Shown here: piece after piece, positions 8,929 through 37,137 of the stretch | Layout of the letters: every line of letters starts with the position of its first letter | Position numbering within the stretch: position 1 is the stretch's first letter | From: Gemmatimonadota bacterium | Lineage (GTDB): Bacteria > Gemmatimonadota > Gemmatimonadetes > Longimicrobiales > RSA9 | Length of the DNA: 46,364 bases | Assembly (NCBI GenBank): GCA_040905425.1 | Contig: JBBDRO010000024.1 | Coordinates: 5,719 to 52,082 of the forward strand | Direction of reading: 5' to 3' | Made by a program: the position numbers and the translations under genes | The notes under the pieces: generated by a model | What the model was told of the DNA's origin: nothing | Databases searched by the model: none | The model's input: the letters and a program-made list of their open reading frames with translations, nothing else

Positions 8929-10467
8929 TCAGTGCAGGCGGCCCCTCAGGCGCAGCGCCAGGGCGTGTTCGCGCCAGCCGTCCGCGCCTTCCTCGAGCCA
9001 GGCGCTGCCCGTGATGGACCAGCGGGCCGCTAGGCGGATGGCGGCGCGCACCTCCCCGCCGGTGGCGCGCCCGGACCGCTCGGGAGCGAAGAGGTTGTGG
9101 GGCCCCCGCTCGCGCGTCCAGCCGGCGGCGGAGAGTGTGGCGCGGCCCGCGTCCAGGCGCGCGTCCCCGCGCCACTCGGTGCCGTCACCGCCCAGCATGT
9201 GACCCAGCGGCCGGCGTTCGTCGGTCCACCCCCCCGTGAGCGCCCAGTTGCGATACCAGACCGTATTGCCGCACCGGCAGTCCGGATGGAACCAGGTGCG
9301 CTCGATCCCGAGCGCCAGTTGGGGCAGTCCCGGAACCGCGCCGAGTTCGGCGCCCACCACGTTGGCGGGGGAGTTGCTGATGGCGCCGGCGCTGTCATCC
9401 AGTCCCCACTCCAGCCAGAGCCGCAGCGGCAGCGCTCCCAGCGGCGGACGCCATCGTGCATCCAGCGCCAGCACCAGGTTGTTGAACTCACCCACCTCGC
9501 CGGAGTGCTTGCCCACCAGCAGCTTGAGCATGTGCTCGAGGGTGATCGGTGCGTTGCCACGACCGCCGAAGATATCCCCGCGCGTGAGGCCGAAGCCGAA
9601 GCGCGGGTGCGGGGAGATCGCCAGGCGCGTGGCCGCGAACCACGGCTCGGTGATGCTGTCCCCGTTTTCGAGGCGGGAGAGGACGAACTCCGCGGACAAC
9701 GGTCCGAACACGTCCAGGAAGCCGGAGGGCTCGAGGGGCGCGGCGGTGGCCAGGCCCACGCCGTCCAGGGAGGTGCCGCTCAGCACGATCGAACCACCAC
9801 GCCCGGGACCCATCCCCACCACCCGGCGGCCGCCCCACAGATGGAAGCCGCCCAGGCGCACCACCGCCTCCGCCGCGGGCAGACGCATGTTGCCGTGCCG
9901 TGCCTCGACGGAGGCGCCGAGCCAGGCGCGCTCACGCACCCGCGTGCCGATGGCCACGGCGAGGAGCGCGGTGGCGGTGTCCGGGGCCGGCGGCGCGCCC
10001 GTCCAGTTGTCCACGTTCTCATACCCCATGCCCGTGAGCACCACCCCGGTGCGGTAGCGGTAGCCGCCCTCGGCGGTGATGCGCACCACCCGGGCGGGGG
10101 CCAGCACCGGCAGGGCCACGGTGCCCGTCTCCGCCACGAAGCGGACGCTCCAGTCGGCGATCAGCGGCAGCAGGGGATGGTCCTGGACGCCCGCCACCAC
10201 GGCCGCATGGGCCAGCGCCCGGCCCACGTCACCCTCGCGTGGCGCGCGTCGGCCCCAGTCGCTTCCCGGCGGCAGCAACCCCGCCGCGTCCAGGCGGCGC
10301 AGCGCGCCCACGCTCCAGTGGTCGGGGGCCAGCGTGGGGGTGGGTGCCTGCGCCGCGGCCGGACCAGTGGTGGCGAGTACGGCCGTGCCCACCAGCAACG
10401 CCCTAGCGAGCAGCGCCGCACGCGCCCTGAGGGTGCCAGCGAGCATGCGCCGCAGCACGGTCTTCAC
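8929..10467 (-). CDS. Second capsule assembly Wzi-family outer-membrane beta-barrel (start at 10467 or 10446)
   Basis: Signal peptide ending AAAQA; helical N-terminal segment 'DHWSVGALRRLDAAGLL'; 'GPGRGGSIVLS', 'RPLGHMLGGDG' Wzi-like motifs. Confidence 0.72.
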   Translation of the reverse strand: MKTVLRRMLAGTLRARAALLARALLVGTAVLATTGPAAAQAPTPTLAPDHWSVGALRRLDAAGLLPPGSDWGRRAPREGDVGRALAHAAVVAGVQDHPLLPLIADWSVRFVAETGTVALPVLAPARVVRITAEGGYRYRTGVVLTGMGYENVDNWTGAPPAPDTATALLAVAIGTRVRERAWLGASVEARHGNMRLPAAEAVVRLGGFHLWGGRRVVGMGPGRGGSIVLSGTSLDGVGLATAAPLEPSGFLDVFGPLSAEFVLSRLENGDSITEPWFAATRLAISPHPRFGFGLTRGDIFGGRGNAPITLEHMLKLLVGKHSGEVGEFNNLVLALDARWRPPLGALPLRLWLEWGLDDSAGAISNSPANVVGAELGAVPGLPQLALGIERTWFHPDCRCGNTVWYRNWALTGGWTDERRPLGHMLGGDGTEWRGDARLDAGRATLSAAGWTRERGPHNLFAPERSGRATGGEVRAAIRLAARWSITGSAWLEEGADGWREHALALRLRGRLH

Positions 10468-10468
10468 G

Positions 10469-12829: not shown

Positions 12830-13449
12830 CGCACCAGGATGAGGACCACGCTGAGCAGGCCTGAGGCAATGGCCGCTACGGTGCCCGGATTCCTGGACAG
12901 CCAGCTGCGCTCCGGCACGAAGAGCTGGTCACCGGAACGAATCGGCGAGGCGGAAATGACCGTCCGCTCGCTGATGGACACAGGCATCACCTGGCCGGCG
13001 CGTAGCAGCTGGATCCGCTCCGCATCCCCCTCCGGCGTGGTACCGCCCGCCAGCGCCAGCGCGTCGGCCACCGTGAGGGTCGGGTCCACGTCGTACATGG
13101 CGGGTTCGCGTACCGCTCCCTGCACGGCGATGCGGCGCAGGAAGACCACCTCGATGGAGGTGTGAGTGAGGCTCTTCGTGAGTTCGTCCAGGATGTGCTT
13201 CTCGATCTCCAGGGGGGTGCGGCCGGTGACGTCCATGCGGCCGATGCGCGGCAGCACCACGATGCCCCGCGTGTCCACGCGGAACGTGCCCTCCCAGTCG
13301 GGTTCACGCCAGACACTGAGCACGATGGCGTCCCCCGGCCGGAGCGGTTCCAGCAGGGGGGACCAGCCCTCCCCCGGGGGCTCCTGCGCAGCGGCGGGCG
13401 CCGCCCACCATGCCAGCGCCATCAGGGTGGCGCACCAGCCTGCCTTCAT
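12826..13449 (-). CDS. wza: Polysaccharide export (OPX/Wza-like) protein with SLBB domain, short form
   Basis: GAGGAGG RBS; 'LRPGDAIVLSVW...VDTRGIVVLPRIG' Poly_export motif; 'VQGAVREP...TVADALALAGG', 'IRSGDQLFVP'; C-terminal hydrophobic helix. Confidence 0.85.
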   Translation of the reverse strand: MKAGWCATLMALAWWAAPAAAQEPPGEGWSPLLEPLRPGDAIVLSVWREPDWEGTFRVDTRGIVVLPRIGRMDVTGRTPLEIEKHILDELTKSLTHTSIEVVFLRRIAVQGAVREPAMYDVDPTLTVADALALAGGTTPEGDAERIQLLRAGQVMPVSISERTVISASPIRSGDQLFVPERSWLSRNPGTVAAIASGLLSVVLILVR

Positions 13450-13514
13450 ATGCCTCCTCGTGGGTCCGGCCCTGTCCCTCGGCGGTCGTGGCCGGGCTCG
13501 TCCCGCGCACCCGC

Positions 13515-14306
13515 TCACCGGAACAGCTCGCGCAGCCGGTCCAGGAGCGTCCTGCTGACGGTGTACGGGGGGACGGGGATGGGCGCGCGACCCTCGAGCA
13601 GTCGTGCCGGGTTGCTACGCATCAGCAGGTGGACCTGCTCCTCCGCGCCCGCCTCCAGCAGGACATCCTCGTACGCGCGCACCTGCGGGTCACCCCGCGC
13701 ATGGTAATCCGACGAAAGGTAGTCCGCCCAACCGCGCTCGAGCAACACACCGGCTCGCTGACGCGCCTCTTTGCCGTAGCGTCCCAGCAGCGAGCCGCCG
13801 TTCACCTGGAGGTAGGCACCGGCGTCGCGCCACTCCCCGGCCAGGCGCAGCTCGGTGTCCAGATTGTGGTAGCGCTCGGGGTGCGCCACGATGGGTATGA
13901 CACCGCGCTCCCGCAGCTGGCGCACCGCGCGCGCCGCATGCGGCGGAACGGTCATGAAGGGAAACTCCATGAGCACGAAGGCGCCCCCCGCCAGGCGCAG
14001 GCGGGGATCGTCCAGCACGGGATTGGGCGTGTCCAGATTCAGCTCCACGCCGCGGTAAAGCCGAACGTTCACGGCCGCGTCCGCGGCGGCCGCGCAGAGG
14101 ATCTGCCAGCCCCGGTCCAGTTGCTCCAGGCGCGCCGCCAGGGCGTCCGGATCCGTTGTGATGGCGGCATCCACGTGGGGCGTGGCGACTGCCGCGGTGA
14201 CGCCTTGCTCCGCCAGGGCACAGAGGGCGGCCAGGCTCTCCGCCCGATCCACGGCGCCATCATCCACCCCGGGAATGAGGTGGCTGTGAAAGTCCACGAT
14301 GCTCAC
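13515..14306 (-). CDS. PHP-family protein-tyrosine phosphatase (CpsB/CapC type)
   Basis: GTGA overlap start; IVDFHSHLIPGVDDG, ATPH, IVAHPERY, SSDYH metal-binding motifs. Confidence 0.92.
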   Translation of the reverse strand: MSIVDFHSHLIPGVDDGAVDRAESLAALCALAEQGVTAAVATPHVDAAITTDPDALAARLEQLDRGWQILCAAAADAAVNVRLYRGVELNLDTPNPVLDDPRLRLAGGAFVLMEFPFMTVPPHAARAVRQLRERGVIPIVAHPERYHNLDTELRLAGEWRDAGAYLQVNGGSLLGRYGKEARQRAGVLLERGWADYLSSDYHARGDPQVRAYEDVLLEAGAEEQVHLLMRSNPARLLEGRAPIPVPPYTVSRTLLDRLRELFR

Positions 14307-15802
14307 GCTAGCCGACTCCATTCTGGCAGATCGACCTCGAGCTTCTCCGGCGCCGCGCGGGCCGCCTCCGGATCCTCCGCGGCCAGGCGGGCCGCCACCA
14401 GCGCACCGCCGCAGAGCAGCGCCACGTACTGCGTGAATGCCGCGTAGTAGTCGAAGGCGTTGTCCGTGATGCTCACCACGGCCCAGGCCAGCAGGAGTCC
14501 CACCGCAGGGAAGGCGTACTCACGGGTCAGGCGATCGGGCAGCAGTGCCGCCCGCGCCGCCCCGAACAGCCAGATCAGCAGCGCCGCCGCGAAGAGGGCC
14601 ACGCCGAGTACACCGGTGTCCGTGAGCAGGCGGATGTACTCGTTGTGTACCACCTGCCCCGCCTCCGCCGGGAAATTGGCCCGCACGATGGCGGTGGAGG
14701 AGCCCAGCCCCAGGCCGAACCACGGCTGCGCCAGGTAGGCCGCCAGCACGATGGGCCAGACGATCTCCCTGCCCTGCCAGTTGATGGACTCGTAGAGCGC
14801 GAGCGGGCTGCCGAGCAGCGCCGTGAGCTCGCCCACGCGCGGCACGAAGCCGAGCGAACGCTCCAGCACGGCGGGCACGAGCGGTATGGCCACGGCGGCG
14901 CCGACCAGGGCCGCCGCCCCCAGGGCGCGCCAGTTGCGCCCGGCCACGGCCGCGGTCACCGCCACCGCGGCCAGCGCCACGAGCGTGGCCAGCAGGGTGA
15001 TCCGTGTGTTGGCCATGACGATCCACAGGCCGGCGCCCGCGCAGAGCGCCAGATAACGCAGCTGCCCGCGTGACACGAAGCGGGTGAACGCCACGACGAG
15101 GATGACCAGCATGTAGAAGGAGAGCGGATTCTCGTGCCCCGCCACGCCGCGTATGCGCATGCCGCCCTGGAGGGTCACGTCGTAGGCGCCGCCCAGGAAA
15201 TACAGGGGATTCAGCACGAACGCGATGACCGCCCCGCCGGCCAGCGCCCAATCGGCCAACCCCTCCAGCTCCCGCCGGGTACGGACCGCACCGAGCACGG
15301 TGAGGAAGATGAGCAGCGGATAGGTGATCTTGAGCCAGAGCCGAAGTCCGTCCACGAGCGCCAGAGAGCGCGGCAGGGTGGCGGCCGCGAAGAGCAGGAA
15401 GAGGACATAGACCGCCCCCCATCGCCCGAGCAACTGGCGCAGCACCGCGCCATCCACGAGCGCCAGGATACCGAGCCCCGCGGACACCGCGATCAGGCGG
15501 ATGCCGTTCATGTCCAGCCCGCCGATGGCGGGCAGGAGGTCCTTGAAGCCGCCGGTGATGAAGGACAGGTCAATCGGCCCGATGGCCAGCATAACGGCCA
15601 CAACCACGAGCGGGCGGGCCAGCACGGCGGCCAGCAACAGCCCGCCGAAGAGGATACCGGTGACCAGGAACGGCACGTGCACAAGCAGATAACCCGAAAC
15701 GAGCGCCACCACGACGGCCACGACCACCTCGGGGAGGTGGTCCCCCACGGCCGGCACGCCGCTCCGGTAGCGCCATGCCGCCGAGCCGGAGGTGCCCCTC
15801 AC
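14303..15802 (-). CDS. O-antigen ligase / Wzy polymerase family membrane protein
   Basis: Many TM helices; 'GHENPLSFY', 'GREIVW', 'PWFGLGLGS', 'HNEYIRLLTDTGVLG' Wzy_C signature. Confidence 0.85.
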   Translation of the reverse strand: MRGTSGSAAWRYRSGVPAVGDHLPEVVVAVVVALVSGYLLVHVPFLVTGILFGGLLLAAVLARPLVVVAVMLAIGPIDLSFITGGFKDLLPAIGGLDMNGIRLIAVSAGLGILALVDGAVLRQLLGRWGAVYVLFLLFAAATLPRSLALVDGLRLWLKITYPLLIFLTVLGAVRTRRELEGLADWALAGGAVIAFVLNPLYFLGGAYDVTLQGGMRIRGVAGHENPLSFYMLVILVVAFTRFVSRGQLRYLALCAGAGLWIVMANTRITLLATLVALAAVAVTAAVAGRNWRALGAAALVGAAVAIPLVPAVLERSLGFVPRVGELTALLGSPLALYESINWQGREIVWPIVLAAYLAQPWFGLGLGSSTAIVRANFPAEAGQVVHNEYIRLLTDTGVLGVALFAAALLIWLFGAARAALLPDRLTREYAFPAVGLLLAWAVVSITDNAFDYYAAFTQYVALLCGGALVAARLAAEDPEAARAAPEKLEVDLPEWSRLA

Positions 15803-16956
15803 GCATCCTCCAGTACGCGGCGGTAGAAGGCTTCCACCCCGCCGGCGATATGGGTCCAGGCGAGCGGACCCTCGGCCAGCTCCCGGGCGGCGCGACCGGC
15901 CACCGCCAGGGCGCCGGGATCGTCGAGCACCTCGGCCATCCGCTGGCCCAGCGCGTCGGCCTCGGGCGGCGTGCTCCAGCCCGCGCCCGCCGCGCTGATG
16001 GCGTCGGCAGCGTCCCCCACGGCGGGCAGCAGCGTGGCGCGGCCGGCCGCCAGATAGTCGTTCACCTTACTCGGCCAGCGGCCCCGGTTGGCCACGGTGT
16101 CGCGGAGCGGCACCACGCACACGTCCGCGGCGCCGAGCCAGAGGGAGAGCTCCGCGTCATCCACGCGCCCCGTGCGCAGCAGCGCGTCCGGCGGCAGCGT
16201 CAGGCGGGTACGGACCGAGCCCACCAGCACCAGACGCAGGCGCGGGTGGCGCCGCCTGGCGGTCGTCACCGCGTCACTCAGCAGGCGGGCGTCGCCGGGC
16301 ACCAGCGCGCCCAGGTGGAGCACCAGCGGCGCCGTGGCGTCCACGCCCAGCGCGCGCCGCGCCACGGCCCGCTCCATGGGCGCCACGCGTTCCCTGCTGC
16401 AGCCGTGGGGGAAGCGGTGGATGCGGCCCGCCGGCACGCCCAGGCCCGCGGCGCGCTCGCCCAGGGCGCGGCTGATCACCGTGGTGCCGTGGGCCTCCCG
16501 CCGGTAGGCCTCCTCGAACCACTGCTCCACGGGCTCGATGAGCGCCCCCAGGAGCGGTCCCGAGCGCTCTCGCGTGGTGCCGCCCCGGCCCCACCAGTCG
16601 GCCCAGTCCAGCACCAGCCGGGCGCCGCCGTCGCGCAGGCGCAGGGCAGGGTAGATGACGGCCGGCCGGGAGTCGAAGGCGTGCACCAGGTCGCAGCGCC
16701 TGCCCTGCACCAGGCGCAGCCGGTGGAAGAGGTTCCACAGGTCCCAACCCGTGCGCCCGCGGCCGCTCAGGAGGTCGGGCATGTGGGCCACCACCACGCC
16801 ACCGTGGCGCTCCACCCCGCCCCGCCAGCGGCCGGTGGCGTGCGTGGTCACCACCAGCACCTCGTGGCCGCGTGCGCGCAGCGCACGCCCCAGGTGATAG
16901 GCCCGGAAGAAGGTGCCGGCCCAGGCGGGATTGTGGTTCAGGAAGACCAGGCGCAT
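15799..16956 (-). CDS. Glycosyltransferase family 4
   Basis: GT-B fold motifs 'ADVCVVPL...RWPSKVNDYLAAGRATL'; locus context. Confidence 0.85.
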   Translation of the reverse strand: MRLVFLNHNPAWAGTFFRAYHLGRALRARGHEVLVVTTHATGRWRGGVERHGGVVVAHMPDLLSGRGRTGWDLWNLFHRLRLVQGRRCDLVHAFDSRPAVIYPALRLRDGGARLVLDWADWWGRGGTTRERSGPLLGALIEPVEQWFEEAYRREAHGTTVISRALGERAAGLGVPAGRIHRFPHGCSRERVAPMERAVARRALGVDATAPLVLHLGALVPGDARLLSDAVTTARRRHPRLRLVLVGSVRTRLTLPPDALLRTGRVDDAELSLWLGAADVCVVPLRDTVANRGRWPSKVNDYLAAGRATLLPAVGDAADAISAAGAGWSTPPEADALGQRMAEVLDDPGALAVAGRAARELAEGPLAWTHIAGGVEAFYRRVLEDA

Positions 16957-18143
16957 CAGCCCTCCTCCCGGCGCGCGAGCGCGGCGCCGTAGATGCGCGC
17001 CAGGGCGGCGTAGCTCGCGGGTGCGGCGTAGCGGTCCAGATAGCTGCGGCGCGCGGCCTCGCCAAGGCGGCGGCGGAGCTCCGGCCGGCCGGCGAGCTGG
17101 CGCACCGCGGCCGCGAGCGCGCCCGCGTCCCCGGGGCGCACGCGCACGCCGTTCACCCCGTCCTCCACGATGGTGGCGAGCGCGCCGTGATCGGAGGCGA
17201 TCACGGGGAGCGCGCAGGCGAACGCCTCCGCCATCACCATGGGAAAGCCCTCGTAGGAGATGGACGGTACCACAAGCGCGGCCGCGTGGCGCATGTGTTC
17301 GAGGACCTCGGGGCCCGGGAGCCGGCCGAGCGGGCGGATGGATGGATGCCGGATGCTGGCGGCCCGGACGTCGCTTTCAAGGGGGCCCTCTCCCACGATC
17401 TGCAGCTCCGGGGGCGCCTCCAGCTCCGCCCAGGCCCGCAGCAGCACGTCCACGCCCTTCTGCCGGTCCAACCGGCCCACGAAGAGGAAGGCCTCACCGC
17501 CCAGTCCGGCACCGGGATCGGCCGCCAGGAAGTTGGGCTTCACGTGCATGCGCTCCACCGGCAGCCCGCCCCGTCCGAAGAGGTCACGGGCGAAGGGCGT
17601 GAGGGCAATAAAGGCGTCCACCTGGCGCCAGGTACCCGCCGCGCGGTGGGTCTGCAGCGTGAGGGCGCTCACGGCGCTGGCCACCCGCGAGCCACCGTAG
17701 CAGCCGTGCACCACCGCCCGCCACGGCACGTGCCCCACACAGTCCTCGCAGGGGGCGCCGGCGCGCAGGAGATCGGCGCCCGGGCAGAGCAGCCGGTAAT
17801 TGTGCAGCGTGGCCACCACGGCGGCCCCGCCCGCCCGCGCCCCGCGCACGACCGCCGGGGAGAGGGCCGGGAAGGTGTTGTGCAGGTGTACCACGGAGGC
17901 GCGCTCGGCCCGCACGAGGGCCTCCAGTTCGGCCGCCGCGCCGCGGTTCCACACGGCCAGGCGCGCGGTGGTAGCGGCCGAGCGCTCGGCGAAGTCGGCG
18001 TTGTTCACATGGAAGCGGACCACGCGATGGTCGTGCGCGCTCAGGAGGTCCGCCTCGGCGTCGGCCACGGCCTCCTCGCCCCCCGACCGGCGGTAGCGGG
18101 CGTGCACCTGCACCACGGTGTGCGGCCGCGCGGCCATGACCAT
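16956..18143 (-). CDS. Glycosyltransferase family 4
   Basis: SGGEE, VHLHNTFP, TLHNYRLLCP, FVGRLDRQKG, YEGFPMVMAEAFACALPVI. Confidence 0.92.
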   Translation of the reverse strand: MVMAARPHTVVQVHARYRRSGGEEAVADAEADLLSAHDHRVVRFHVNNADFAERSAATTARLAVWNRGAAAELEALVRAERASVVHLHNTFPALSPAVVRGARAGGAAVVATLHNYRLLCPGADLLRAGAPCEDCVGHVPWRAVVHGCYGGSRVASAVSALTLQTHRAAGTWRQVDAFIALTPFARDLFGRGGLPVERMHVKPNFLAADPGAGLGGEAFLFVGRLDRQKGVDVLLRAWAELEAPPELQIVGEGPLESDVRAASIRHPSIRPLGRLPGPEVLEHMRHAAALVVPSISYEGFPMVMAEAFACALPVIASDHGALATIVEDGVNGVRVRPGDAGALAAAVRQLAGRPELRRRLGEAARRSYLDRYAAPASYAALARIYGAALARREEG

Positions 18144-18155: not shown

Positions 18156-18899
18156 TCAGTACGCCCCGCGCGCGCTCACCACCGCCGGCAGCGTGGCGGC
18201 GAGGAGCCGCAGATCGAGAGCCAGACTCCAGTTCTGGATGTAGTCCATGTCCAGCCGGGCCCAGTGGTCGAAGTCGGAGATCTCGGAGCGTCCGCTCACC
18301 TGCCAGATGCAGGTGATCCCCGGGACCACGGCCAGCTTGCCCCACTGCCACGGCGCGAAGGCGGCGAACTCCTCGGCCGAGGGCGGCCGGGGACCGACCA
18401 GACTCATGTCCCCCACCAGCACGCTCCAGAGCTGGGGCAGCTCGTCCAGGGAGTAGCGGCGCAGGAAGCGGCCGAGCGGGGTGATGCGCGGGTCATCCCG
18501 AAGCTTGAAGACCGGCCCCGACATCTCGTTGCGGTGCAGCATGCGCGCCTTCTGCTGGTCCGCGTCCGCCACCATCGTGCGGAACTTGTAGCCCACGAAG
18601 GGGCGGGCCCGGTGCCCCAGAACGCGCCACGGGTAGAGCACGGGTCCCGGCGAGGTGGCCTTGACGAGGACGGCAATGACGGCCAGCGCCGGACTCAGGA
18701 CCACCAGCCCCGTGCCCGCCAGCAGGATGTCCAGGACGCGCTTCACCACCTGGCCGGCGCGCCAGCGCCACCCCGCCGCGCGCGGGGGCAGGTAGGAAGC
18801 CCAGTCGACCTCCTCGCGCAGCTGCCGCACGCGCTCGTCCACGGGCACGGCTGCCGGCGGAGGGGCCTTTGCCGTGAGCTCGCGGGCCGGGGTGCTCAC
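18156..18899 (-). CDS. Priming undecaprenyl-phosphate sugar phosphotransferase (Bac_transf, small PglC-like form)
   Basis: GTGA overlap start; KRVLDI, YKFRTM, DDPRITPLGRFLRRYSLDELPQL, GDMSLVGPRP, PGITCIWQVSGRS. Confidence 0.93.
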   Translation of the reverse strand: MSTPARELTAKAPPPAAVPVDERVRQLREEVDWASYLPPRAAGWRWRAGQVVKRVLDILLAGTGLVVLSPALAVIAVLVKATSPGPVLYPWRVLGHRARPFVGYKFRTMVADADQQKARMLHRNEMSGPVFKLRDDPRITPLGRFLRRYSLDELPQLWSVLVGDMSLVGPRPPSAEEFAAFAPWQWGKLAVVPGITCIWQVSGRSEISDFDHWARLDMDYIQNWSLALDLRLLAATLPAVVSARGAY

Positions 18900-19540
18900 G
18901 GGGACGCCACCTCCGCCACGGACTCCCAGGTCATGGCGCCGGTGCGGAGGGCGGGGTGCGTCACCAGGAGGTGCCAGAGCACGCCCTGGAAGGCCTCCGT
19001 GTGCGGCGTGACGGCCGCGCCGTTGACCACGGGTACCACCAGGGCCACATCGGCATGCGCCGCAGTGTAGCCGCCGTCCCGTCCCACGATGCCGAACACG
19101 GCCGCGCCCACCCGGCGGGCGTGGTCCACGGCGCGCACCAGGCCGGCGCTCACGGCCGGCGTGCGGCTGCCGCCGCCTACGGAGAGGACGAAGATGGCGT
19201 CGGCCGGCCCCAGGCGGCTGCCGCGCAGCCACGCCTCGTGGACGGTTTCCCAGCCATCGTCGTTCGTGCGGGCCGTGAGCTCGGCCACGTTCTCTGTGGC
19301 GGCGTACGCCTCGAAGCCCGCCAGCTTGCGGAAATCCGCCGCGGCGTGGGATGCATTGGCCGCGCTACCGCCCGCGCCCAGGAAGAAGAGGCGACCGCCC
19401 CGCCCGCGCACCTTCACCAGCTGCGCCACGAGGCTCTCGACCATCCGCGGGTCGATCCGCCGGGCGATGTCCGCCGTTTCCGCCAGGTAGCGGGCGGCAT
19501 GACTGCCGGCCCCGTCTGCCAGGTTCTGATCTGCGCTCAA
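18896..19540 (-). CDS. gmhA: SIS-domain phosphosugar isomerase, GmhA-like (divergent)
   Basis: TTGA overlap start; 'FFLGAGGSAANASH', 'LTARTNDDGW', 'LSVGGG', 'VGRDGG', 'TEAFQGVLWH'. Confidence 0.8.
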   Translation of the reverse strand: MSADQNLADGAGSHAARYLAETADIARRIDPRMVESLVAQLVKVRGRGGRLFFLGAGGSAANASHAAADFRKLAGFEAYAATENVAELTARTNDDGWETVHEAWLRGSRLGPADAIFVLSVGGGSRTPAVSAGLVRAVDHARRVGAAVFGIVGRDGGYTAAHADVALVVPVVNGAAVTPHTEAFQGVLWHLLVTHPALRTGAMTWESVAEVASP

Positions 19541-20073
19541 ACCGTGCCCTCCGCTGCTTCCAGGATGGCGCTCACCGCGCCGTCGAGATCGGCGCTGGCC
19601 AGGGTGCTCCGGGTGCCGGCGTTGTAGGGGCGGCTGAGCAGCACCGTGGTGCAACCGGCCGCCCGTCCCGCCGCCATGTCCTTCCAGCCGTCTCCCACCA
19701 GGAACGAACGACGCGGATCCACCCGCCAGCGCTCCGCCAGCGTGTGGATCATGCCCGGCAGCGGCTTGCGGCATCCACAGCCGTCCCGGTCGTCGTGCGG
19801 GCACCAGGCCACGTCGTCCACACCGGTTGCCCGGCCCACGCGCTCCATCATCTCCGCCAGTACCGCGGGGGGGAGCAATCCCCGCGCCACATCAGGCTGA
19901 TTCGTCACCACCAGGGTACGGAAGCCGGCCTCCCGCAGGCGTGCGACGGCCGCAGCGGCGCCCGGGACGAGTTGCAGCTCCTCCACGGACCGCGGCGAGG
20001 CCGGCCGGCCGGCGCGCATGACCACATGGTTCAGCACGCCATCGCGATCCAGAAAGACGGCGCGCGCGCTCAT
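19537..20073 (-). CDS. gmhB: HAD-IIIA phosphatase, heptose-bisphosphate phosphatase GmhB-like
   Basis: FLDRDGVLN, VVTNQP, CPHDDRDGCGCRKPLPGM, FLVGDGWKD. Confidence 0.88.
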   Translation of the reverse strand: MSARAVFLDRDGVLNHVVMRAGRPASPRSVEELQLVPGAAAAVARLREAGFRTLVVTNQPDVARGLLPPAVLAEMMERVGRATGVDDVAWCPHDDRDGCGCRKPLPGMIHTLAERWRVDPRRSFLVGDGWKDMAAGRAAGCTTVLLSRPYNAGTRSTLASADLDGAVSAILEAAEGTV

Positions 20074-21089
20074 GCGGGGATCGGCACGGCGGCGCCCTCA
20101 CGCGCGGCCCGATACACGGCGTCGATCATACGCATGGCCGCCACGCCCTCGGCGGCACCGCTGCCGTCGCCGGCACGCACGCGGCCCACGTAGGCGGCCC
20201 ATTCGCGGCACCACGAGCCGTCGGGTCCCTCAAAGACGCGCTCCTCCATGCGGGGCACGCCGCCGGCTTGGTTGCGCTCCACTACGATGAGGCGCTCCAC
20301 CCCGTAGCTGCCGCCCAACCCCTCCACGACCACGGCGCCCCGCTCGCCGTGCACCTCGAAGGAAAAGAGGTTCTTCCACTGCGTCATACTGACGTGGAAC
20401 TGCCCCACCGCGCCACCCTGGAAGGTGAAAAGGGCAAAGGCATTGTCCTCGAGCGGCTCCAGAGGCCACACGGCCGTCTGCACGATTCCCTGCGCGGCGG
20501 TGGCGGGGCCGGCGAACCAGCGGAACAGGTCGGCCAGGTGCACCCCCTGGTCGAGCAGCTCGCCGCCGCCGGCCAGTTCGGGGTCCGCCCGCCATTCCCG
20601 CTCGCAGCCCGGGCGGGCACCGTGACCGTAGCGCGCGCGGAGCTGGATTACGCGCCCGATGCGCCCCTCCCGCACCAGCCGGTGCGCCTCCTCCAGCCCC
20701 GGGTGGTGCCGGTGGTTGAACCCCACCGCCAGGACGCGCCCCGCCGCCTGTGCCGCGGCCGCCATGCGCTCCGCCTCGGCGGCCGAGCGGCCCATGGGCT
20801 TCTCCACCAGCACGTGGCGGCCGGCGGAGAGCGCCCGGCAGGCCACATCGGCCAGGTGCCCGTTGGGGGTGGCCGCCACCACCGCGCCCACGCTCGGATC
20901 GTCCAGCGCCTCGTCCAGGGAGGAGGCCACCCGGGCGCCGTGCTCCCCTGCGAGCGCGGCCGCGCGCGCACCGTCCGGGTCCACCACGCTCACCAGGCGC
21001 GTGTCCACGTGGGCCGCCACGCAGCCGGCGCGGCGCCCGCCGATGAGGCCGCAGCCCACCACGACAACGCCCAGGGGAGCGCCGCTCAC
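20070..21089 (-). CDS. Gfo/Idh/MocA family oxidoreductase
   Basis: GTGA overlap start; VVGCGLIG, ATPNGHL, HVLVEKPM, VGFNHRH, GGGELLDQGVHLAD. Confidence 0.92.
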   Translation of the reverse strand: MSGAPLGVVVVGCGLIGGRRAGCVAAHVDTRLVSVVDPDGARAAALAGEHGARVASSLDEALDDPSVGAVVAATPNGHLADVACRALSAGRHVLVEKPMGRSAAEAERMAAAAQAAGRVLAVGFNHRHHPGLEEAHRLVREGRIGRVIQLRARYGHGARPGCEREWRADPELAGGGELLDQGVHLADLFRWFAGPATAAQGIVQTAVWPLEPLEDNAFALFTFQGGAVGQFHVSMTQWKNLFSFEVHGERGAVVVEGLGGSYGVERLIVVERNQAGGVPRMEERVFEGPDGSWCREWAAYVGRVRAGDGSGAAEGVAAMRMIDAVYRAAREGAAVPIPA

Positions 21090-22096
21090 TGCCAGTCCTG
21101 GCCGCGGTCCCGCGGCACGATGCGGCGCAAGGTGAAGAGATCCGATCCCGCGATCCGGTCGGCGTGGGAGGGCCAGTCGGCCCAGGCGTCCCAGGGCGCG
21201 GCCAGCAACCGTCCCGTGATGCCCGCGGCCTCGTCCGAGAGCAGGAAGGCGGCGGCCTGCGCGGCCAGCACGGGGGGCACGCCGCCGGCGGCAAGCTCCG
21301 CCCGGGTCCGCTCCAGGTACGCGGCGCCCGCCCGCTCGCCGGCTTGCAGCGTGGCCTGGTGCATGGCGGTGGCCACGAAGCCGGGGGCCAGGCTGTTCAC
21401 CCGGATGCCGCGCGGCGCCCACTCCATGGCAAGCGTTTCGGCCAGGCGCACCACGCCGGCCTTGGCGGCGGCATACGCTGTATAGTTGGGAAAAGGTGAG
21501 GTGCCGCCCCCGCCCGAGAAGAGCACGATGCTGCCCCCTGCGGCATCCATGCCTGCGGCCGCGGCCCGTGCCGCCAGGAAGGTGCCGTGCAGGTCCACAC
21601 GCACGGCCTCGAGCCACGCGGCCGGATCCACCTCGAGCGCGGGGCCGATCGGCCCGATGATGGCGGCGGCGTGTACCAGACCGTCCAGGCGGCCGAAGCG
21701 GGCGCGGGTGGCCGCCACGGCGGCGTCCATGGCGCCCGGCGCCGCCACGTCCGCCGCATGCACCAGCACGCGCTCAGCGGCGGGCGGGACGTCCGCCGCC
21801 CGTTCTCTGGAGTCCGCCGCCCGTTCTCTGGAGTCCGCCGCGCGTTCGCCCGGTTCCGCCGCGCTTTGTCCAGGGTCCGCCGCAGGTGCTCCGGGGTCCA
21901 TCGCGAGCTCTGCCGCGAGCGCCTCCAGCGCCGGTGCACCGCGTGCCACCAGGGTCACCACCGCGCCGCGGGCCACGAGTTCCGCGGCACACGCCCGACC
22001 GATGCCGCCGCTGGCCCCCGTCACCACCACGGCGCGTCCGGCCAGGCTGGCGCCGGACACGCCGTCCTCTTCCCGCTCGGGCCGGGGGGCCCGCAT
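21086..22096 (-). CDS. Short-chain dehydrogenase/reductase (alternative GTG start at 22060)
   Basis: TGASGGIG, FSGGG, YAAAK, VNSLAPGFVAT; carries a 7-aa repeat insertion. Confidence 0.9.
   Translation of the reverse strand: MRAPRPEREEDGVSGASLAGRAVVVTGASGGIGRACAAELVARGAVVTLVARGAPALEALAAELAMDPGAPAADPGQSAAEPGERAADSRERAADSRERAADVPPAAERVLVHAADVAAPGAMDAAVAATRARFGRLDGLVHAAAIIGPIGPALEVDPAAWLEAVRVDLHGTFLAARAAAAGMDAAGGSIVLFSGGGGTSPFPNYTAYAAAKAGVVRLAETLAMEWAPRGIRVNSLAPGFVATAMHQATLQAGERAGAAYLERTRAELAAGGVPPVLAAQAAAFLLSDEAAGITGRLLAAPWDAWADWPSHADRIAGSDLFTLRRIVPRDRGQDWQ
21791..21895 (-). repeat. In-frame 21-bp tandem repeat, 5 copies (2 identical)
   Basis: + strand units gtccgccgcccgttctctgga x2 followed by three degenerate copies; encodes PGAPAAD-PGQSAAE-PGERAAD-SRERAAD-SRERAAD. 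Confidence 0.9.
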
Positions 22097-23139
22097 CAGG
22101 AGGGCGCCGGCGGACCGTGCGTGCGTACCGCGGGCGCCGCGGCCAGGTTGGCAATGACCTTGGTCCCCTCGTGCTCCACCGTGTAGTGCAGGCGCGGCAT
22201 GCCGCGCTCGAGCATGAAGCGCTCCAGACGCCGGTGATCGGCGGGGCAGTACAGCATGAGGAAGCCGCCGCCGCCGGCCCCGGCCACCTTGCCGCCCAGC
22301 ACGCCGAATTCCTGCCGCACGTGCTCGTAGAGCTCGTCCATGGCGCCCACCGAGACGCGGGGCGAGAGGCGCCGCTTGGCGCACCAGTGCTCGTGCAGCA
22401 GGTGCCCCCAGCGATCGTAATCCTCCTCCTCCACGGCGGCCAGCACGCGCTGCCCGATGTCCTTGATGCGCAGGAGGGCGTCCGCCACGGTATGCCCGGA
22501 ATCCGGGCCGTTCCTCATGGCGTGGTCCTGGGCATGCAGCACGTCGGACGCCTGGCGCCGCACCCCCGTGTAGTAGATGTGCGTGTTGGCGGCGAAGGCC
22601 TCGGCCGCCCCGCTCGGCACCTCCACGGTACGCACCTGCACGGTGCCGTCGCGGGCAATGTCCAGGACGGTCATGCCGCCGAACGCCGCCATGTACTGGT
22701 CCTGCTTGCCCACGCGCTTGCCCAGCACATCCATCTCGATGCGGCAGGCCTCCTCCGCCAGCACCGCCAGCGGCACGTGATCCCGCCGGTGCTGATGGAG
22801 CGCCAGCAGCAGCCCCACCAGGTAGGCCCCCGAGGAACCCAGGCCCGTTCCATCCGGCACGTCGGCCATGGAGGAGATTTCCATGCGACGTTCGATGCCA
22901 TTCATGCGCAACGCCTCGCGCGCCAGTTCATGGCTCAGCTCGTCCACGTGATCCACCGTCTCGCTCCGGCTGTAGTGCAGCCGGATGCGGGAGTCCACGA
23001 GGGGCGGGTTCACCATGATGTACATGTACTTGTCGATGGCCATGGCAAAGACGAATCCGCCATGCTTCTCGTAGAACGACGGCAGGTCCGTGCCCCCGCC
23101 TCCCAGCGTCAGCCGGAAGGGCGTGCGCGTCATGATCAT
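22096..23139 (-). CDS. GHMP sugar-phosphate kinase, HddA/LmbP-like
   Basis: TRTPFRLTLGGGGTDLP, GTGLGSSG, GKQDQY, GGKVAGAGGGGF. Confidence 0.9.
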   Translation of the reverse strand: MIMTRTPFRLTLGGGGTDLPSFYEKHGGFVFAMAIDKYMYIMVNPPLVDSRIRLHYSRSETVDHVDELSHELAREALRMNGIERRMEISSMADVPDGTGLGSSGAYLVGLLLALHQHRRDHVPLAVLAEEACRIEMDVLGKRVGKQDQYMAAFGGMTVLDIARDGTVQVRTVEVPSGAAEAFAANTHIYYTGVRRQASDVLHAQDHAMRNGPDSGHTVADALLRIKDIGQRVLAAVEEEDYDRWGHLLHEHWCAKRRLSPRVSVGAMDELYEHVRQEFGVLGGKVAGAGGGGFLMLYCPADHRRLERFMLERGMPRLHYTVEHEGTKVIANLAAAPAVRTHGPPAPS

Positions 23140-23912
23140 GCGCCCACCCGGCCGCTCGCCACCAGCTGCTGCGCGGCCGCGAAGCGCTCGGGCGTATCGA
23201 GGCCGAGGCAGAACGCACCGTCTTCCAGAACGTGGGCCGTCAGCCGCCCCGCTGCCGCCAGCCCCGGCAGCACGTCGTGGCCGAAGTCGGCGAAGCCCGG
23301 TGGGACCTCGGTCGCCACCTCAGGCTCCAGCAGGTAGACGCCCGCGTTCACGTGCGCGCCGTGGCCATCATTACCGCCTTCATGGAATGCGCTCACGGCA
23401 TCACCGGTGACGCGCACGCGGCCACCCGAGCCACCGGTACAGGTGTGCCGGTCCGGGTCGTAGAGCGCCACCGTGCCGGGTCTCGCCGCCGCCCGGTGAG
23501 CGGCCAGGAGCAACGTCAGGTCGAAGCGCATGAAGTTGTCACCGTACACCACCAGGCTGGTGCTGCGCCAATGCTCCGCCAGCCGGCGCCACCCCCCGGC
23601 GGTACCCAGGATCTCCTCCTCCTGACTGTAGCGGAGCCGGACGCCCTCCGTTTCTTCACCAAGGGCGGCGCGGATGGCGGCCGCGCCGTGGTGCAGATTG
23701 ATCCACACGCTGCCCACACCCCACTCCGCCAGCCAGCGGAGATTCCACCCGAGCAGGCTCCGGCCTGCCACGTCCAGCAGCGGCTTCGGGGTGGCGCCGG
23801 CCACGCCGGCGATGCGACTGCCCCGCCCCGCCGCCAGCACCAGGACCCCCAGATCCGCCGGCGCGCCCGGCTTGGGCCGTGGCTCGTCGGCGGATAGCTC
23901 GATGCCGCTCAC
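23136..23912 (-). CDS. Sugar-1-phosphate nucleotidyltransferase, HddC/LmbO-like
   Basis: GTGA overlap start; LAAGRGSRI, PKPLL, LGTAGG, VYGD, VNAGVYLL; no hexapeptide C-terminal domain. Confidence 0.88.
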   Translation of the reverse strand: MSGIELSADEPRPKPGAPADLGVLVLAAGRGSRIAGVAGATPKPLLDVAGRSLLGWNLRWLAEWGVGSVWINLHHGAAAIRAALGEETEGVRLRYSQEEEILGTAGGWRRLAEHWRSTSLVVYGDNFMRFDLTLLLAAHRAAARPGTVALYDPDRHTCTGGSGGRVRVTGDAVSAFHEGGNDGHGAHVNAGVYLLEPEVATEVPPGFADFGHDVLPGLAAAGRLTAHVLEDGAFCLGLDTPERFAAAQQLVASGRVGA

Positions 23913-24862
23913 GCGGCGCCCGCGGCGCCGTCCAGGACATGGGCGCGGATGTAGTCGATCGAGCGACGGAGCCCCTCCTCCAGCGGCACCCTGGGTTCCC
24001 ACCCCAGCGCGCGCGCGGCGCCGATGTCGGCGCACGTACGCTCCGCCTCGCCGGGCAGGTCGGGCGCTCGCAGCGGCTCCACGGGGCTGTCGAGGAGGCG
24101 GGCCACCAGCGCAAAGATCTCGGCTACCGAATGGTCCCGGCCGGCGCCGAGGTTGAACGTGCCCCCCACGGTACGCTCGTCCAGCAGACAGCGCACGTGA
24201 AAATCGTTCACGTCGTCCACGTACACGAAATCGCGGCGTTTCTGGCCGCTACCGAAGATGGTGGGCTGCTGCCCGCGCAGCAGATGGAGGATGAAGGCGG
24301 TCATCACCGGCGGCACCGTGCGGCGATAATCCTGGCGGGGCCCGTAGACGCAGAAGTAGCGCAGGGCGGTGAGCGCCAGGCCCCGTGCGCGACCGTGGCT
24401 CATGGCAAACGCCCGCGCAGCGGCCTTGCTGGTGGCGTAGACGCTGCGGGGCGCATGCACCTCCTCGGGCGTCGGGAACCGGTCCGTGCCCTCGTAGAGC
24501 GCCGAGGATTCGGCGTAGATCACGCGCCCCACGCCGGCCCGGACCGCGGCTTCCAGCACATTGACCGTGCCCACGACGTTCACGGACGCCGTCTCCACGG
24601 GCGCCAGCTCGCAGTCGGAGACGCAGTTCTTGGCCGCCAGGTGAAAGATGGCGGAGGCGCCGCGAAAGACGCGGTCCAGCTCCGCGTTGCGGATGTCGAG
24701 CTCGTGGAAATCCACGCCCGCGGGGACCTGTTCGATCACCCCCTGTGAGAGGTCATCCACACCCACGACGTGCCAGCCGTCCGCCAGGAGACGCTCCGCC
24801 AGATTGCTGCCGATGAAGCCCGCCACGCCCGTCACGACGATGGGCCCGTCCGCGGCGGTCAC
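23909..24862 (-). CDS. NAD-dependent nucleotide-sugar epimerase/dehydratase
   Basis: GTG start overlapping upstream TAG; VTGVAGFIGSNL, HLAA, YATSK, RYFCVYGPRQ, RDFVYVDD. Confidence 0.92.
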   Translation of the reverse strand: MTAADGPIVVTGVAGFIGSNLAERLLADGWHVVGVDDLSQGVIEQVPAGVDFHELDIRNAELDRVFRGASAIFHLAAKNCVSDCELAPVETASVNVVGTVNVLEAAVRAGVGRVIYAESSALYEGTDRFPTPEEVHAPRSVYATSKAAARAFAMSHGRARGLALTALRYFCVYGPRQDYRRTVPPVMTAFILHLLRGQQPTIFGSGQKRRDFVYVDDVNDFHVRCLLDERTVGGTFNLGAGRDHSVAEIFALVARLLDSPVEPLRAPDLPGEAERTCADIGAARALGWEPRVPLEEGLRRSIDYIRAHVLDGAAGAA

Positions 24863-25614
24863 TACAGACTGTACCCCGCGCTGCGGCCATCCTCGTAGAA
24901 CATGGCCACCGTCTCCCGGGAGAAGGCCTCCAGATCCTTGCCACGCAGCGTCAGCTTGGCCAGGAGGTCCGCCGTGAGGACGATGATGTCCACGCCGCAC
25001 GCGTCCGCCTGATAGACGTTCAGAACCTCACGTGGGCTGGCCCACAGGAGACGCAGGCCCGGCACGGCATGGCAGATCTCCGCCGCTTCCCGCATCAGAG
25101 GGCACGGATCCACCCCGGTATCGGCGATGCGTCCAGCGAAGACCGAAACGATGGCCTGGGCACCCGGAGGCAGCGTATCGGCCACCTCCCCGACCTGGCG
25201 CAGCGTCATGGCCGCGGTGACGTTGACCCGTAGCCCCTCGCCAGCGAGCTCGGCGACCACGGGAGCCGTCGACACACCCGCCGTGGTGCAGACCGGAACC
25301 TTGACGAACACGTTAGGGCCCCAGCTGCCGATCTCGCGGGCCTCGCGCGCGACCCCCTCGAGGTCGTCGGCCAGCACCTCGAAGGAGATGGGCATGCCGC
25401 CGACCCGCGCCAGCGCCTGGCGGGCGAATTCGCGGTAGTTGCGGACGCCCGCCTTCGCGGCCAGCGTGGGATTCGTGGTGAAGCCCTCGGCCACGCCATC
25501 CTGGATGGCGGCCTCCATGTCCGACAGGGAAGCACCGTCGAAATATACCGCCACGCGCAGATCCCCGGAGGGTGCGGTCTGGACGCGGGGCAGGGTAAGG
25601 CTCTTCACACTCAT
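24862..25614 (-). CDS. tal: Transaldolase (small TalC-type)
   Basis: GFTTNPTL, ISFEV, VFVKVP (Schiff-base Lys), VNVT, SVFAGRI, LLWASPRE. Confidence 0.9.
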   Translation of the reverse strand: MSVKSLTLPRVQTAPSGDLRVAVYFDGASLSDMEAAIQDGVAEGFTTNPTLAAKAGVRNYREFARQALARVGGMPISFEVLADDLEGVAREAREIGSWGPNVFVKVPVCTTAGVSTAPVVAELAGEGLRVNVTAAMTLRQVGEVADTLPPGAQAIVSVFAGRIADTGVDPCPLMREAAEICHAVPGLRLLWASPREVLNVYQADACGVDIIVLTADLLAKLTLRGKDLEAFSRETVAMFYEDGRSAGYSL

Positions 25615-25666: not shown

Positions 25667-26230
25667 TCATGTGCCCTTGAGGGGCTCCAGAAGCGCCACG
25701 TCGAAATCCACTTCCAGACCCTGGCCGATGGCCTTCAATCCGATCAGCACCCGCCGCCGGTTGCGTTGCTCCACCACCACCCCCTTCACGCCCTGGAACG
25801 GACCCTCCTTGACCCGCACCCACTGCCCCTCGGCCAGAAACGGACGCACAACCAGTTCCACCTTGGCATTCACGAGCGCGTTGGCAAAGCACCGCACGTT
25901 CTCGATCTCGTCCGGATGGATGGCCACGGGGCGCCCGTTGGAGCGCACCACGGTGGCCAGACCCGGGATGCCCAGCACGCGATGGATCTCCGTTTCCCGG
26001 AAGCGGCCGAAAACATAGCTGGGGAAGAGGGGCCACGCGACCACCTTCTTGCGGTCCTTCCACTGGGTCTCCCTGGGCACCAGTGGCAGAAAACTTTCGA
26101 ATCCGCCCCGACACAGCATGGTCTCCACACGCTTCTCGTGACGGGAGCGGGTGTAACAGGCGTACCACGACGGCTCGGGCGCGGGTTCGCCGCTTCGTTC
26201 CAGTGCGTGTGCTAATGAAGAAGGGCTCAT
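25667..26230 (-). CDS. Specialized NusG paralog, UpxY/RfaH/LoaP-like transcription antiterminator
   Basis: AGGA RBS; NGN domain 'WYACYTRSRHEKRV...FLPL...QWKDRKKVVAWPLFPSYVF'; KOW motif 'GQWVRVKEGPFQGVKGVV'; first gene of the polysaccharide operon. Confidence 0.9.
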   Translation of the reverse strand: MSPSSLAHALERSGEPAPEPSWYACYTRSRHEKRVETMLCRGGFESFLPLVPRETQWKDRKKVVAWPLFPSYVFGRFRETEIHRVLGIPGLATVVRSNGRPVAIHPDEIENVRCFANALVNAKVELVVRPFLAEGQWVRVKEGPFQGVKGVVVEQRNRRRVLIGLKAIGQGLEVDFDVALLEPLKGT

Positions 26231-30791: not shown

Positions 30792-30872
30792 CGGTCGCCA
30801 CTCCCTCGTGGTCAGATCAGGTCGTTGTTCGCTCGCCGGAGTCGGGCGTCATTCGTTCGCCCGACGGAGAGA

Positions 30873-31226: not shown

Positions 31227-31232
31227 GGACTG

Positions 31233-32291: not shown

Positions 32292-32431
32292 TGTTTACCT
32301 CCCCGGCCAGTGGCCGGTGATCGGCCGCGCATCCGCGTATCGGCGGGTGCACGGCCCGGGGTCTTGTTCCAGATCGAGTGGCGTTCCGGCGGGACGCCTG
32401 ATGGCGCCCCGCCCGACGCCCCCGTTGGCTT

Positions 32432-33616: not shown

Positions 33617-33688
33617 CCCGTTCCGTTCGGCTGAGGGTTCTCGCGGCGCTGGGTCCTGCACCGGCACGCGTGGTGCCGGCGGAGGGAC

Positions 33689-34069: not shown

Positions 34070-34073
34070 TCTC

Positions 34074-37133: not shown

Positions 37134-37137
37134 CGGC

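Follow-up and report, generated by a model that had tools for sequence, protein, structure and literature searches.

We asked what a transaldolase, an enzyme of central metabolism, does at the start of a run of sugar-activation genes in a surface polysaccharide operon of a Gemmatimonadota bacterium (order Longimicrobiales). The window analysed here is a stretch of 46,364 nucleotides (contig JBBDRO010000024.1, positions 5,719 to 52,082), and the run comprises eight genes on its minus strand at 18896..25614. An earlier note on this DNA had assigned the eight genes to families and had read them as a dedicated NDP-higher-carbon-sugar module within an operon for a Wzy-polymerised polysaccharide. 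Searches with Pfam and NCBIfam models confirmed all eight families at these coordinates, and the flanking Wzx, Wzy, Wza and Wzc genes support the position of the module in such an operon. We propose with high confidence that the module encodes a transaldolase-primed sugar-nucleotide pathway that feeds the polysaccharide of the operon. The fuller statement, in which the activated sugar also has a C8 (octose-type) chain length, is in our view evenly balanced between right and wrong. The pathway steps are all inferred from family membership and gene context.

In the direction of transcription the module begins with the transaldolase Tal (24862..25614, 250 amino acids, PF00923 109 bits), the proposed first enzyme, of the kind that we call cassette-type below. 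It is followed by a GalE/UXS-like member of the extended short-chain dehydrogenase/reductase (SDR) epimerase/dehydratase family acting on nucleoside diphosphate (NDP) sugars (23909..24862, 317 amino acids, PF01370 183.7 bits), a sugar-1-phosphate nucleotidyltransferase (23136..23912, 258 amino acids, PF00483 52 bits) and an HddA/WcbL-like GHMP anomeric sugar kinase (22096..23139, 347 amino acids, GHMP_kinases_N and GHMP_kinases_C). Next come a classical SDR oxidoreductase (21086..22096, 336 amino acids, adh_short and adh_short_C2, ∼150 bits) and a Gfo/Idh/MocA NAD(P)-dependent sugar oxidoreductase (20070..21089, 339 amino acids, PF01408, PF22725 and PF02894). The last two genes encode a GmhB-like HAD-IIIA sugar-bisphosphate phosphatase (19537..20073, 178 amino acids, TIGR01656 121.6 bits, TIGR01662 80.5 bits, each exceeding its cut-off) and a cassette-type SIS ketose-phosphate/aldose-phosphate isomerase that is distant from GmhA (18896..19540, 214 amino acids, PF13580 28.5 bits). 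The module then runs into a small monotopic polyprenyl-phosphate phosphoglycosyl transferase of the Bac_transf family, the priming transferase (18156..18899, 247 amino acids, PF02397 197.8 bits, TIGR03025 263 bits). The unbroken chain of stop/start overlaps described in the earlier note was borne out when we read the sequence and checked the frames: all eight junctions from Tal through the priming transferase overlap, six of them by 4 nt (GTGA, ATGA or TTGA) and two by 1 nt (TAGTG, TGATG). The caveat is the soft start of the SDR gene, where an in-frame GTG at 22060 is also possible and would leave a 35-nt gap (22095..22061) behind the kinase stop codon. Predicted terminators and promoters were no more numerous within the operon than in shuffled sequences. 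The SDR gene also contains a 21-nt tandem repeat in 5.2 copies (21791..21899, minus strand), which gives a low-complexity RAADSRE-like insertion of ∼40 amino acids; the orthologue in another genome of the phylum (G078) aligns without it (319 query versus 282 subject residues). The eight genes are grouped beyond chance, and the unit is conserved in other genomes.

Within the phylum, another Longimicrobiales genome (locus L080) carries the exact gene order of the window, including the UpxY-family antiterminator gene ahead of the module (61% identity) and the priming transferase behind it, at 55–73% identity. Epimerase copies 52–73% identical to that of the window accompany the module in L080, L054, L074, L077 and L085. 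A module-type Tal was present in only three of 200 other sampled genomes of the phylum (G078, G034 and G052, 43–56% identity); the remaining 43 Tal matches of this sample, a tally that includes the unpublished genome G182, were of the TalC type (33–39% identity). Both G078 and G034 retain all eight genes and the priming transferase, which in G078 lies between the kinase and the SDR, while G034 has an additional NDP-sugar dehydrogenase; G052 has a looser version. The closest homologues of Tal and of the SIS protein are labelled as Longimicrobiales or as Gemmatimonadota metagenome-assembled genomes (MAGs).

How far does the cassette extend beyond the phylum? Its best marker is the SIS protein. 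There were >8000 word-sharing candidates for SIS homologues, of which the top 120 were 59–94% identical to the window protein and all but the closest 59–68%. Among 1.84 billion representatives, 296 of the 50%-identity clusters belong to the family at E ≤ 1e-30, and contigs from one genome per species place it in no fewer than 561 species genomes from >15 phyla (at least 599 pattern matches, 561 confirmed). The earlier note had implied an unusual, isolated cluster; the window instead holds one instance of a cassette that is very common in the environment. We analysed 80 loci, which are the best 80 of at least 561 by score and not a random sample, with SIS proteins 50–65% identical to ours. The titles of their records place them in Acidobacteriota, Planctomycetota, Verrucomicrobiota, Chloroflexota, Nitrospirota, Spirochaetia, Bacillota, Bacteroidota, Alpha-, Beta-, Gamma- and ‘Delta’-proteobacteria, Myxococcota, Elusimicrobia, Omnitrophota, Margulisbacteria, Eremiobacterota, Latescibacterota, Kiritimatiellae, SAR324 and one Micrarchaeota archaeon. 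One title is probably wrong: the cassette Tal of L055 (genome G201, ‘uncultured Bifidobacteriaceae’) groups with Acidobacteriota, and the transaldolases in the sample of its nominal class are TalC-type throughout and resemble acidobacterial ones, not those of actinomycetes. No Streptomyces locus was among these best 80 of 561. The SIS gene is also found on annotated plasmids or chromids of Lawsonia intracellularis (plasmid 3), Rhizobium jaguaris and Rhizobium sp. CB3060. The Lawsonia plasmid is annotated with SIS, HAD-IIIA, transaldolase, nucleotide sugar dehydrogenase, SDR, Gfo/Idh/MocA, ‘galactokinase’ and nucleotidyltransferase genes; seven of the eight module families were matched there by tblastn and the nucleotidyltransferase by the record annotation only. 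The R. jaguaris order is epimerase, dehydrogenase, SDR, Gfo, kinase, nucleotidyltransferase, SIS, HAD, Tal, and in many phyla the families likewise stand in an order other than that of the window. A tblastn search of 50,697 phage records with the SIS protein gave no match at E ≤ 1e-20; one cluster of the ESM Atlas is labelled mostly Uroviricota.

We then determined which module genes accompany the SIS gene, by tblastn with the window proteins (E < 1e-8, at least 50% query coverage, ≤8 kb from the SIS gene), so that the counts rest on one query set. At least 7 kb of sequence on either side was available for 51 of the 80 loci (full loci). Tal was found in 41 of these 51, as a cassette-type protein in 31 (≥40% identity) and as a TalC-type protein in 10 (27–33%), the latter often directly downstream of the SIS gene (six examples). 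The phosphatase was present in 44 full loci, the kinase in 41 and an epimerase-family protein in 39. The nucleotidyltransferase was detected in 21, a count from which divergent or fused forms are probably missing. The SDR occurred in 27 and the Gfo/Idh/MocA protein in 28, both together in 24 loci and one without the other in 7. A TuaD-like dehydrogenase was present in 16 full loci, and in 10 a priming transferase lay no more than 8 kb from the SIS gene; in L080, G078 and G034 the transferase stands next to the module or within it. As a small control we used TalC-type loci of the phylum (∼3.6 kb each), and 24 of 26 had no SIS, HAD, kinase or nucleotidyltransferase gene. In the two exceptions (L009 in G005 and L010 in G032), from another family of the phylum, a TalC-type Tal stands beside SIS (27–30% identity), HAD and nucleotidyltransferase genes; judged by these sequences, the two loci look like a further, more divergent variant of the cassette.

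The transaldolase itself was placed in a tree of 101 segments (IQ-TREE quick, LG+G4), which separated cassette-type from TalC/housekeeping-type sequences with an SH-aLRT support of 100 and put the window Tal in the SIS-linked clade. The cassette-type clade has 63 rows, 54 of them SIS-linked (all those whose context was examined) and nine taken without context from the class sample. The TalC-type clade has 38 rows, among them the housekeeping gene of the host, 24 genes of the phylum, of which one belongs to the unpublished G182, and 12 genes linked to SIS. As these 12 fall in at least three separate subclades, the cassette has recruited a transaldolase more than once. There were 177 longer proteins matching the window Tal at E ≤ 1e-20, and Pfam domains of the 120 that were listed showed 87 HAD-Tal, 19 SIS-Tal and two HAD-SIS-Tal fusions, together with one nucleotidyltransferase-Tal, one epimerase-Tal, four proteins with Tal only and six with other partners. 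Tal is thus joined to HAD, SIS or both in 108 of the 120 listed; one methyltransferase-SIS-Tal protein was also seen, and the ESM Atlas contains SIS-HAD fusions of 380–392 amino acids. The linkage and the fusions together indicate that Tal is an integral first enzyme of the cassette, which fits the logic of the lincomycin GDP-octose route better than that of a heptose route supplied from pentose phosphate metabolism. Like the short transaldolases of TIGR02134, the window Tal passes the cut-off of the model (transald_staph, ‘transaldolase’; 297.8 bits against 281.95) and has their catalytic residues, but the sampled members of its clade are embedded in or fused to a sugar-activation cassette and are not stand-alone pentose phosphate enzymes. 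In the alignment to PDB 3s0c it retains the Lys of VKVP and the Phe of VSVFAGR, and where the Thermoplasma enzyme has Phe132 it too has Phe. We take the lysine to be the Schiff-base residue and assume that Phe marks transaldolases where Tyr marks fructose-6-phosphate aldolases. With this lysine, and with Phe rather than Tyr, Tal should be a genuine transaldolase and should require a ketose phosphate as donor.

Could the module nevertheless be the canonical GDP-heptose pathway? That pathway (GmhA, HddA, GmhB and HddC, in the capsules and S-layer glycans of Campylobacter, Burkholderia and Aneurinibacillus) shares four folds with the module, and also a chemical logic of isomerase, anomeric GHMP kinase, HAD-IIIA phosphatase and nucleotidyltransferase, with WcbL and GmhA as the nearest structures. 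It takes sedoheptulose-7-phosphate from the pentose phosphate pathway, whereas the cassette starts with its own, often fused, transaldolase. As the earlier note had suspected, this is not the standard set, since the equivalog cut-offs were missed for all four enzymes. The SIS protein scored 47.1 bits on the GmhA model TIGR00441 (cut-off 209.45) and 48.3 on NF010547 (cut-off 320), the kinase 118.3 on the HddA model NF049969 (cut-off 600), the phosphatase 122.4 on the GmhB model NF006506 (cut-off 178), with the general HAD-IIIA domain models passed, and the nucleotidyltransferase 44.4 on the HddC model NF049965 (cut-off 300). Given these four misses and the pathway-specific transaldolase, the module is distinct from the canonical GDP-D-glycero-α-D-manno-heptose pathway. 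The isomerase also has a remodelled loop. It matches GmhA structures weakly (37–55 bits), and a profile alignment to them retains the GGSAA..H and ND.G.E motifs, but the STSGKS loop of GmhA, which presumably binds the substrate phosphate, is SVGGGS with a 5-residue insertion, and the H...E pair is H...D. The kinase is most similar to WcbL (PDB 4usm, 110.6 bits), the nucleotidyltransferase to mannose-1-phosphate guanylyltransferase and MurU models (76.9 and 74.2 bits in NCBIfam) and the epimerase to UDP-glucose 4-epimerase (4zrm, 185 bits). The Gfo/Idh/MocA protein best matches 6nor (‘putative NAD dependent dehydrogenase’, 115 bits) and 3q2k (‘oxidoreductase’, 108 bits), which we take to be sugar and nucleotide-sugar 3-dehydrogenases.

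The host assembly, a MAG of 4.12 Mb in 115 contigs and 96.7% complete, holds counterparts of several of these enzymes. The earlier note had suggested looking for a second, housekeeping transaldolase, and there is one, so that the module Tal is not the only one in the genome: a short TalC-type protein of 222 amino acids (PF00923 216 bits, 28.5% identical to the module Tal), encoded on another contig between truA and htrA/purB/purC. A second SIS protein, nearer to GmhA (168 versus 48 bits on TIGR00441) and 35% identical to the module SIS, adjoins alaS and recA on another contig, and a canonical HldE kinase domain is present elsewhere (353.6 bits, cut-off 345). Ordinary heptose genes thus exist in this genome apart from the module. 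Two other known routes were considered and rejected, a 6-deoxy-heptose route for want of a GMD-like dehydratase (36 bits on the gmd model) and a Kdo-type route because neither the KdsA nor the KdsB family was seen in the operon. We also rejected the NDP-sugar dehydrogenase just upstream of the UpxY gene (26438-27856, minus strand) as the cassette-linked dehydrogenase; it is WecC/TviB-like and only 22–27% identical to the module-linked TuaD-like enzymes. The best match to these in the host (34% identity) lies just beyond the left end of the window (C24:4279-5529).

Next we compared the module with the lincosamide GDP-octose route of Streptomyces lincolnensis and S. caelestis. The Lmb tables of two papers list LmbR as transaldolase, LmbN as isomerase, LmbP as kinase, LmbK as phosphatase and LmbO as guanylyltransferase, followed by the LmbM epimerase, the LmbL dehydrogenase, the LmbZ oxidoreductase and the LmbS aminotransferase (PMC4351081, PMC12945683). 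Against these tables the family-by-family parallel drawn in the earlier note holds: five core families including a dedicated transaldolase are shared, and in addition an epimerase and a NAD-dependent oxidoreductase. The lmb sugar genes are transcribed in the order lmbR-S-O-P-Z and then N-M-L with 4-bp overlaps, according to the passages of PMC7014725 on this operon. Both systems are therefore led by a transaldolase and translationally coupled, and on that account of lmb they share the relative order transaldolase, nucleotidyltransferase-kinase, oxidoreductase, isomerase. The likeness drawn here is one of enzyme family and gene order. For the oxidoreductase it assumes that LmbZ belongs to the Gfo/Idh/MocA family. 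The window differs from the lincosamide clusters in that it belongs to primary metabolism and a surface polysaccharide (priming transferase, Wzy, Wza/Wzc) and not to an antibiotic cluster, in that it has neither aminotransferase nor carrier-protein fusion nor thiol chemistry, and in that it has a classical SDR and a phosphatase inside the operon. Our literature search, which left most subscription journals outside, found no paper on this cassette or on an octose in a polysaccharide pathway. The papers that it found on octose or octulose-8-phosphate concern, by their titles and the beginnings of their abstracts, lincosamides, aminoglycosides and metabolomics only. Combining transaldolase with phosphoheptose isomerase and a glycosyltransferase locus gave no paper, and transaldolase with sedoheptulose 7-phosphate isomerase and polysaccharide nothing relevant. 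What is new here is the Gemmatimonadota variant, UpxY-Tal-epimerase-nucleotidyltransferase-kinase-SDR-Gfo-HAD-SIS-phosphoglycosyl transferase without a TuaD-like dehydrogenase, and further the co-occurrence figures for SDR and Gfo, the repeated recruitment of the transaldolase and the collinearity with lmb.

From these families a pathway can be proposed. Tal would move the C3 dihydroxyacetone unit of fructose-6-phosphate (or sedoheptulose-7-phosphate) to an aldose phosphate, most likely ribose-5-phosphate, which would give octulose-8-phosphate. The divergent SIS protein would isomerise this to octose-8-phosphate, the GHMP kinase would phosphorylate C1, the HAD-IIIA phosphatase would take off the terminal phosphate, and the nucleotidyltransferase would form the NDP-sugar. 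The Gfo/Idh/MocA protein and the classical SDR probably act as an oxidise/re-reduce pair with net epimerisation at a ring carbon, which is the simplest reading of their co-occurrence in a locus without an aminotransferase (no aminotransferase domain, the counterpart of LmbS, was found in any open reading frame scanned, whether in the operon or on the divergent arm). The GalE/UXS-like enzyme would epimerise another centre. The product would then be used by the small priming transferase and/or by glycosyltransferases of the GT4 family, possibly as the first sugar, and polymerisation and export by Wzx/Wzy, Wza, Wzc and Wzi would follow under UpxY antitermination.

Does the product have eight carbons or seven? 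Several considerations favour C8. A hard-wired transaldolase suggests that the pathway does not simply draw on the ubiquitous sedoheptulose-7-phosphate. In addition, the cassette has no transketolase to supply erythrose-4-phosphate, while ribose-5-phosphate, like fructose-6-phosphate, is universal, which again points to an octose. The passages of PMC5854111 on octulose phosphates describe the formation of octulose-8-phosphate from ribose-5-phosphate plus fructose-6-phosphate by ordinary transaldolases as well as by LmbR. The lincosamide GDP-octose route, whose relative gene order the module shares, is also the only pathway with such a set of enzymes to have been characterised. Several observations weigh against an octose, or against the pathway as we draw it. 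All of the arguments for C8 are indirect. Tal passes the plain ‘transaldolase’ equivalog with ordinary catalytic residues and bears no mark of a ribose-5-phosphate preference in its sequence. The nearest solved relatives of kinase, phosphatase and isomerase are heptose enzymes (WcbL, GmhA). A transketolase (Transketolase_N) was found in all five cassette genomes tested, including the Micrarchaeota MAG, so that erythrose-4-phosphate and sedoheptulose-7-phosphate are available there and the presence or absence of this enzyme does not discriminate. With our query no Tal was found within 8 kb in 10 of the 51 full loci. The lack of an aminotransferase means that the tailoring differs from that of lincosamides, and an LmbN-like carrier-protein domain was found by Pfam in none of 18 N-terminally extended SIS representatives (nor did Lmb names occur among the cluster names of 10 such representatives). 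Finally, the host genome is a MAG in 115 contigs.

Some of these points lend themselves to another explanation, namely that the product is a modified NDP-heptose (C7). Tal would then boost or insulate the supply of sedoheptulose-7-phosphate from fructose-6-phosphate and erythrose-4-phosphate for a heptose-rich polysaccharide; SIS, kinase, HAD and nucleotidyltransferase would be divergent analogues of GmhA, HddA, GmhB and HddC, and the epimerase, Gfo and SDR would reconfigure the heptose. We regard this as a real possibility, if a doubtful one. It agrees with the ordinary character of Tal, with the transketolase of the carriers and with the heptose enzymes as closest characterised relatives (HddA 118, GmhB 122, GmhA 48 and WcbL ∼110 bits). 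The public annotation of the SIS family is ‘D-sedoheptulose 7-phosphate isomerase’, and the recruitment of housekeeping-type TalC shows that no special transaldolase is needed. However, all four ‘heptose’ enzymes of the module miss their equivalog cut-offs widely, HldE and GmhA-like genes for ordinary heptose lie apart from the module in this genome, and sedoheptulose-7-phosphate is a standing central metabolite in a host that already has a housekeeping transaldolase. The fusion of Tal to phosphatase or isomerase in 108 of the 120 listed proteins is hard to explain as a flux boost. To our knowledge, the studied GDP-heptose clusters of Campylobacter, Burkholderia and Aneurinibacillus carry no transaldolase, and none of the papers listed by our literature search, judged by the listing and the beginnings of the abstracts, combined a transaldolase with HddA.

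An octose made with ribose-5-phosphate is not the only sugar that a cassette with its own Tal could yield. Another acceptor (arabinose-5-phosphate, a hexose-6-phosphate or a non-phosphorylated aldose) would lead to some other isomer of the octose or to a C9 sugar; alternatively, the enzymes would work in another order. A range of aldose phosphates can serve transaldolases and related aldolases, and different acceptors give rise to several octulose isomers, as stated in the same passages of PMC5854111. The TuaD-like dehydrogenase in 16 of 51 full loci and the methyltransferase-SIS-Tal fusion, moreover, make product diversity in the cassette family likely. Nevertheless, we found no specific evidence for any one alternative, and the only characterised pathway of transaldolase, SIS, kinase, phosphatase and nucleotidyltransferase uses ribose-5-phosphate, as far as the relevant passages of two papers describe it (PMC7014725, PMC5854111). 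A different acceptor therefore seems improbable to us for the window. That the genes are merely neighbours, with Tal, epimerase, SDR and Gfo serving unrelated sugars or central metabolism, is very improbable: the GalE-like epimerase does resemble generic UDP-hexose 4-epimerases and UXS and could make UDP-Gal or UDP-Xyl, and about half of the full loci lack SDR and Gfo, but the overlap of all eight junctions, the conservation of the block as a unit in L080, G034 and G078, the occurrence of SDR and Gfo mostly as a pair (24 loci, against 7 with one alone) and the fusions of Tal to HAD, SIS, nucleotidyltransferase or epimerase domains speak for a single pathway.

The surroundings of the module are those of a Wzx/Wzy-type polysaccharide locus, with a priming phosphoglycosyl transferase, glycosyltransferases, a Wzy-family polymerase, Wzx and Wza/Wzc export genes identified by Pfam. 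The G+C content is 66–76% across the whole window. The module is part of an 18-gene operon on the minus strand, headed by a gene for a UpxY-family NusG-like antiterminator (25667..26230; PF02357 NusG 63 bits plus KOW; NF033644 antiterm_UpxY 120.5 bits, cut-off 100). In this respect the locus resembles UpxY/RfaH-controlled Wzx/Wzy loci such as those for Bacteroides capsules, in which a UpxY-family gene heads a long operon with priming transferase, glycosyltransferases, Wzy and export genes, but here the host belongs to the Gemmatimonadota. Behind the priming transferase follow two GT4 genes (16956..18143 and 15799..16956, Pfam), a Wzy_C polymerase/ligase-family gene (14303..15802, PF04932 37.2 bits, cut-off 31.7), a CpsB phosphatase gene (13515..14321, Pfam), Wza (12826..13518, PF02563), Wzc (10469..12829, GNVR/Wzz/P-loop) and Wzi (8929..10518, PF14052 115.6 bits). 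The divergent arm on the plus strand carries Wzx (PF13440), a further GT4, two RCC1-repeat (β-propeller) proteins (1020-2549, with a Big_1 domain, and 6122-7276; Pfam) and a second Wzi-like outer-membrane gene (7267-8916, PF14052 30.7 bits). The two Wzi-like genes converge tail to tail, each closing one arm of the locus. On the other side, hemD and a Na+/H+ exchanger gene are followed on their right by an ordinary housekeeping region with ribosomal-protein genes, secY and rpoA (30237-46363, minus strand).

What would this cassette mean for the bacteria that carry it? Tentatively, and with confidence somewhat short of even, we suggest that octoses, and octuronic acids where a TuaD-like dehydrogenase is present, are made by a transaldolase-primed, lincomycin-like route that is common in the surface glycans of bacteria and some archaea of soils and sediments, across >15 phyla. 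In the Gemmatimonadota the NDP-octose, epimerised by Gfo/SDR redox chemistry, would be the priming sugar that the small phosphoglycosyl transferase puts on undecaprenyl phosphate, and the lincosamide route would have branched off late, in actinomycetes, from this cassette of primary metabolism. Should the product be an octose, a class of sugars known so far only from one antibiotic family would prove to be frequent on cell surfaces in the environment, the labels ‘sedoheptulose-7-phosphate isomerase’, ‘heptose kinase’ and ‘transaldolase’ would be wrong for thousands of genes, and C8 sugars would have to be looked for in glycan analyses. Should it be a heptose, the cassette still represents a large, conserved and uncharacterised pathway. 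Cultured carriers such as R. jaguaris make the cassette directly testable. In either case the hard-wired and often fused transaldolase is a clear case of an enzyme of central metabolism that has been recruited more than once into glycan biosynthesis.

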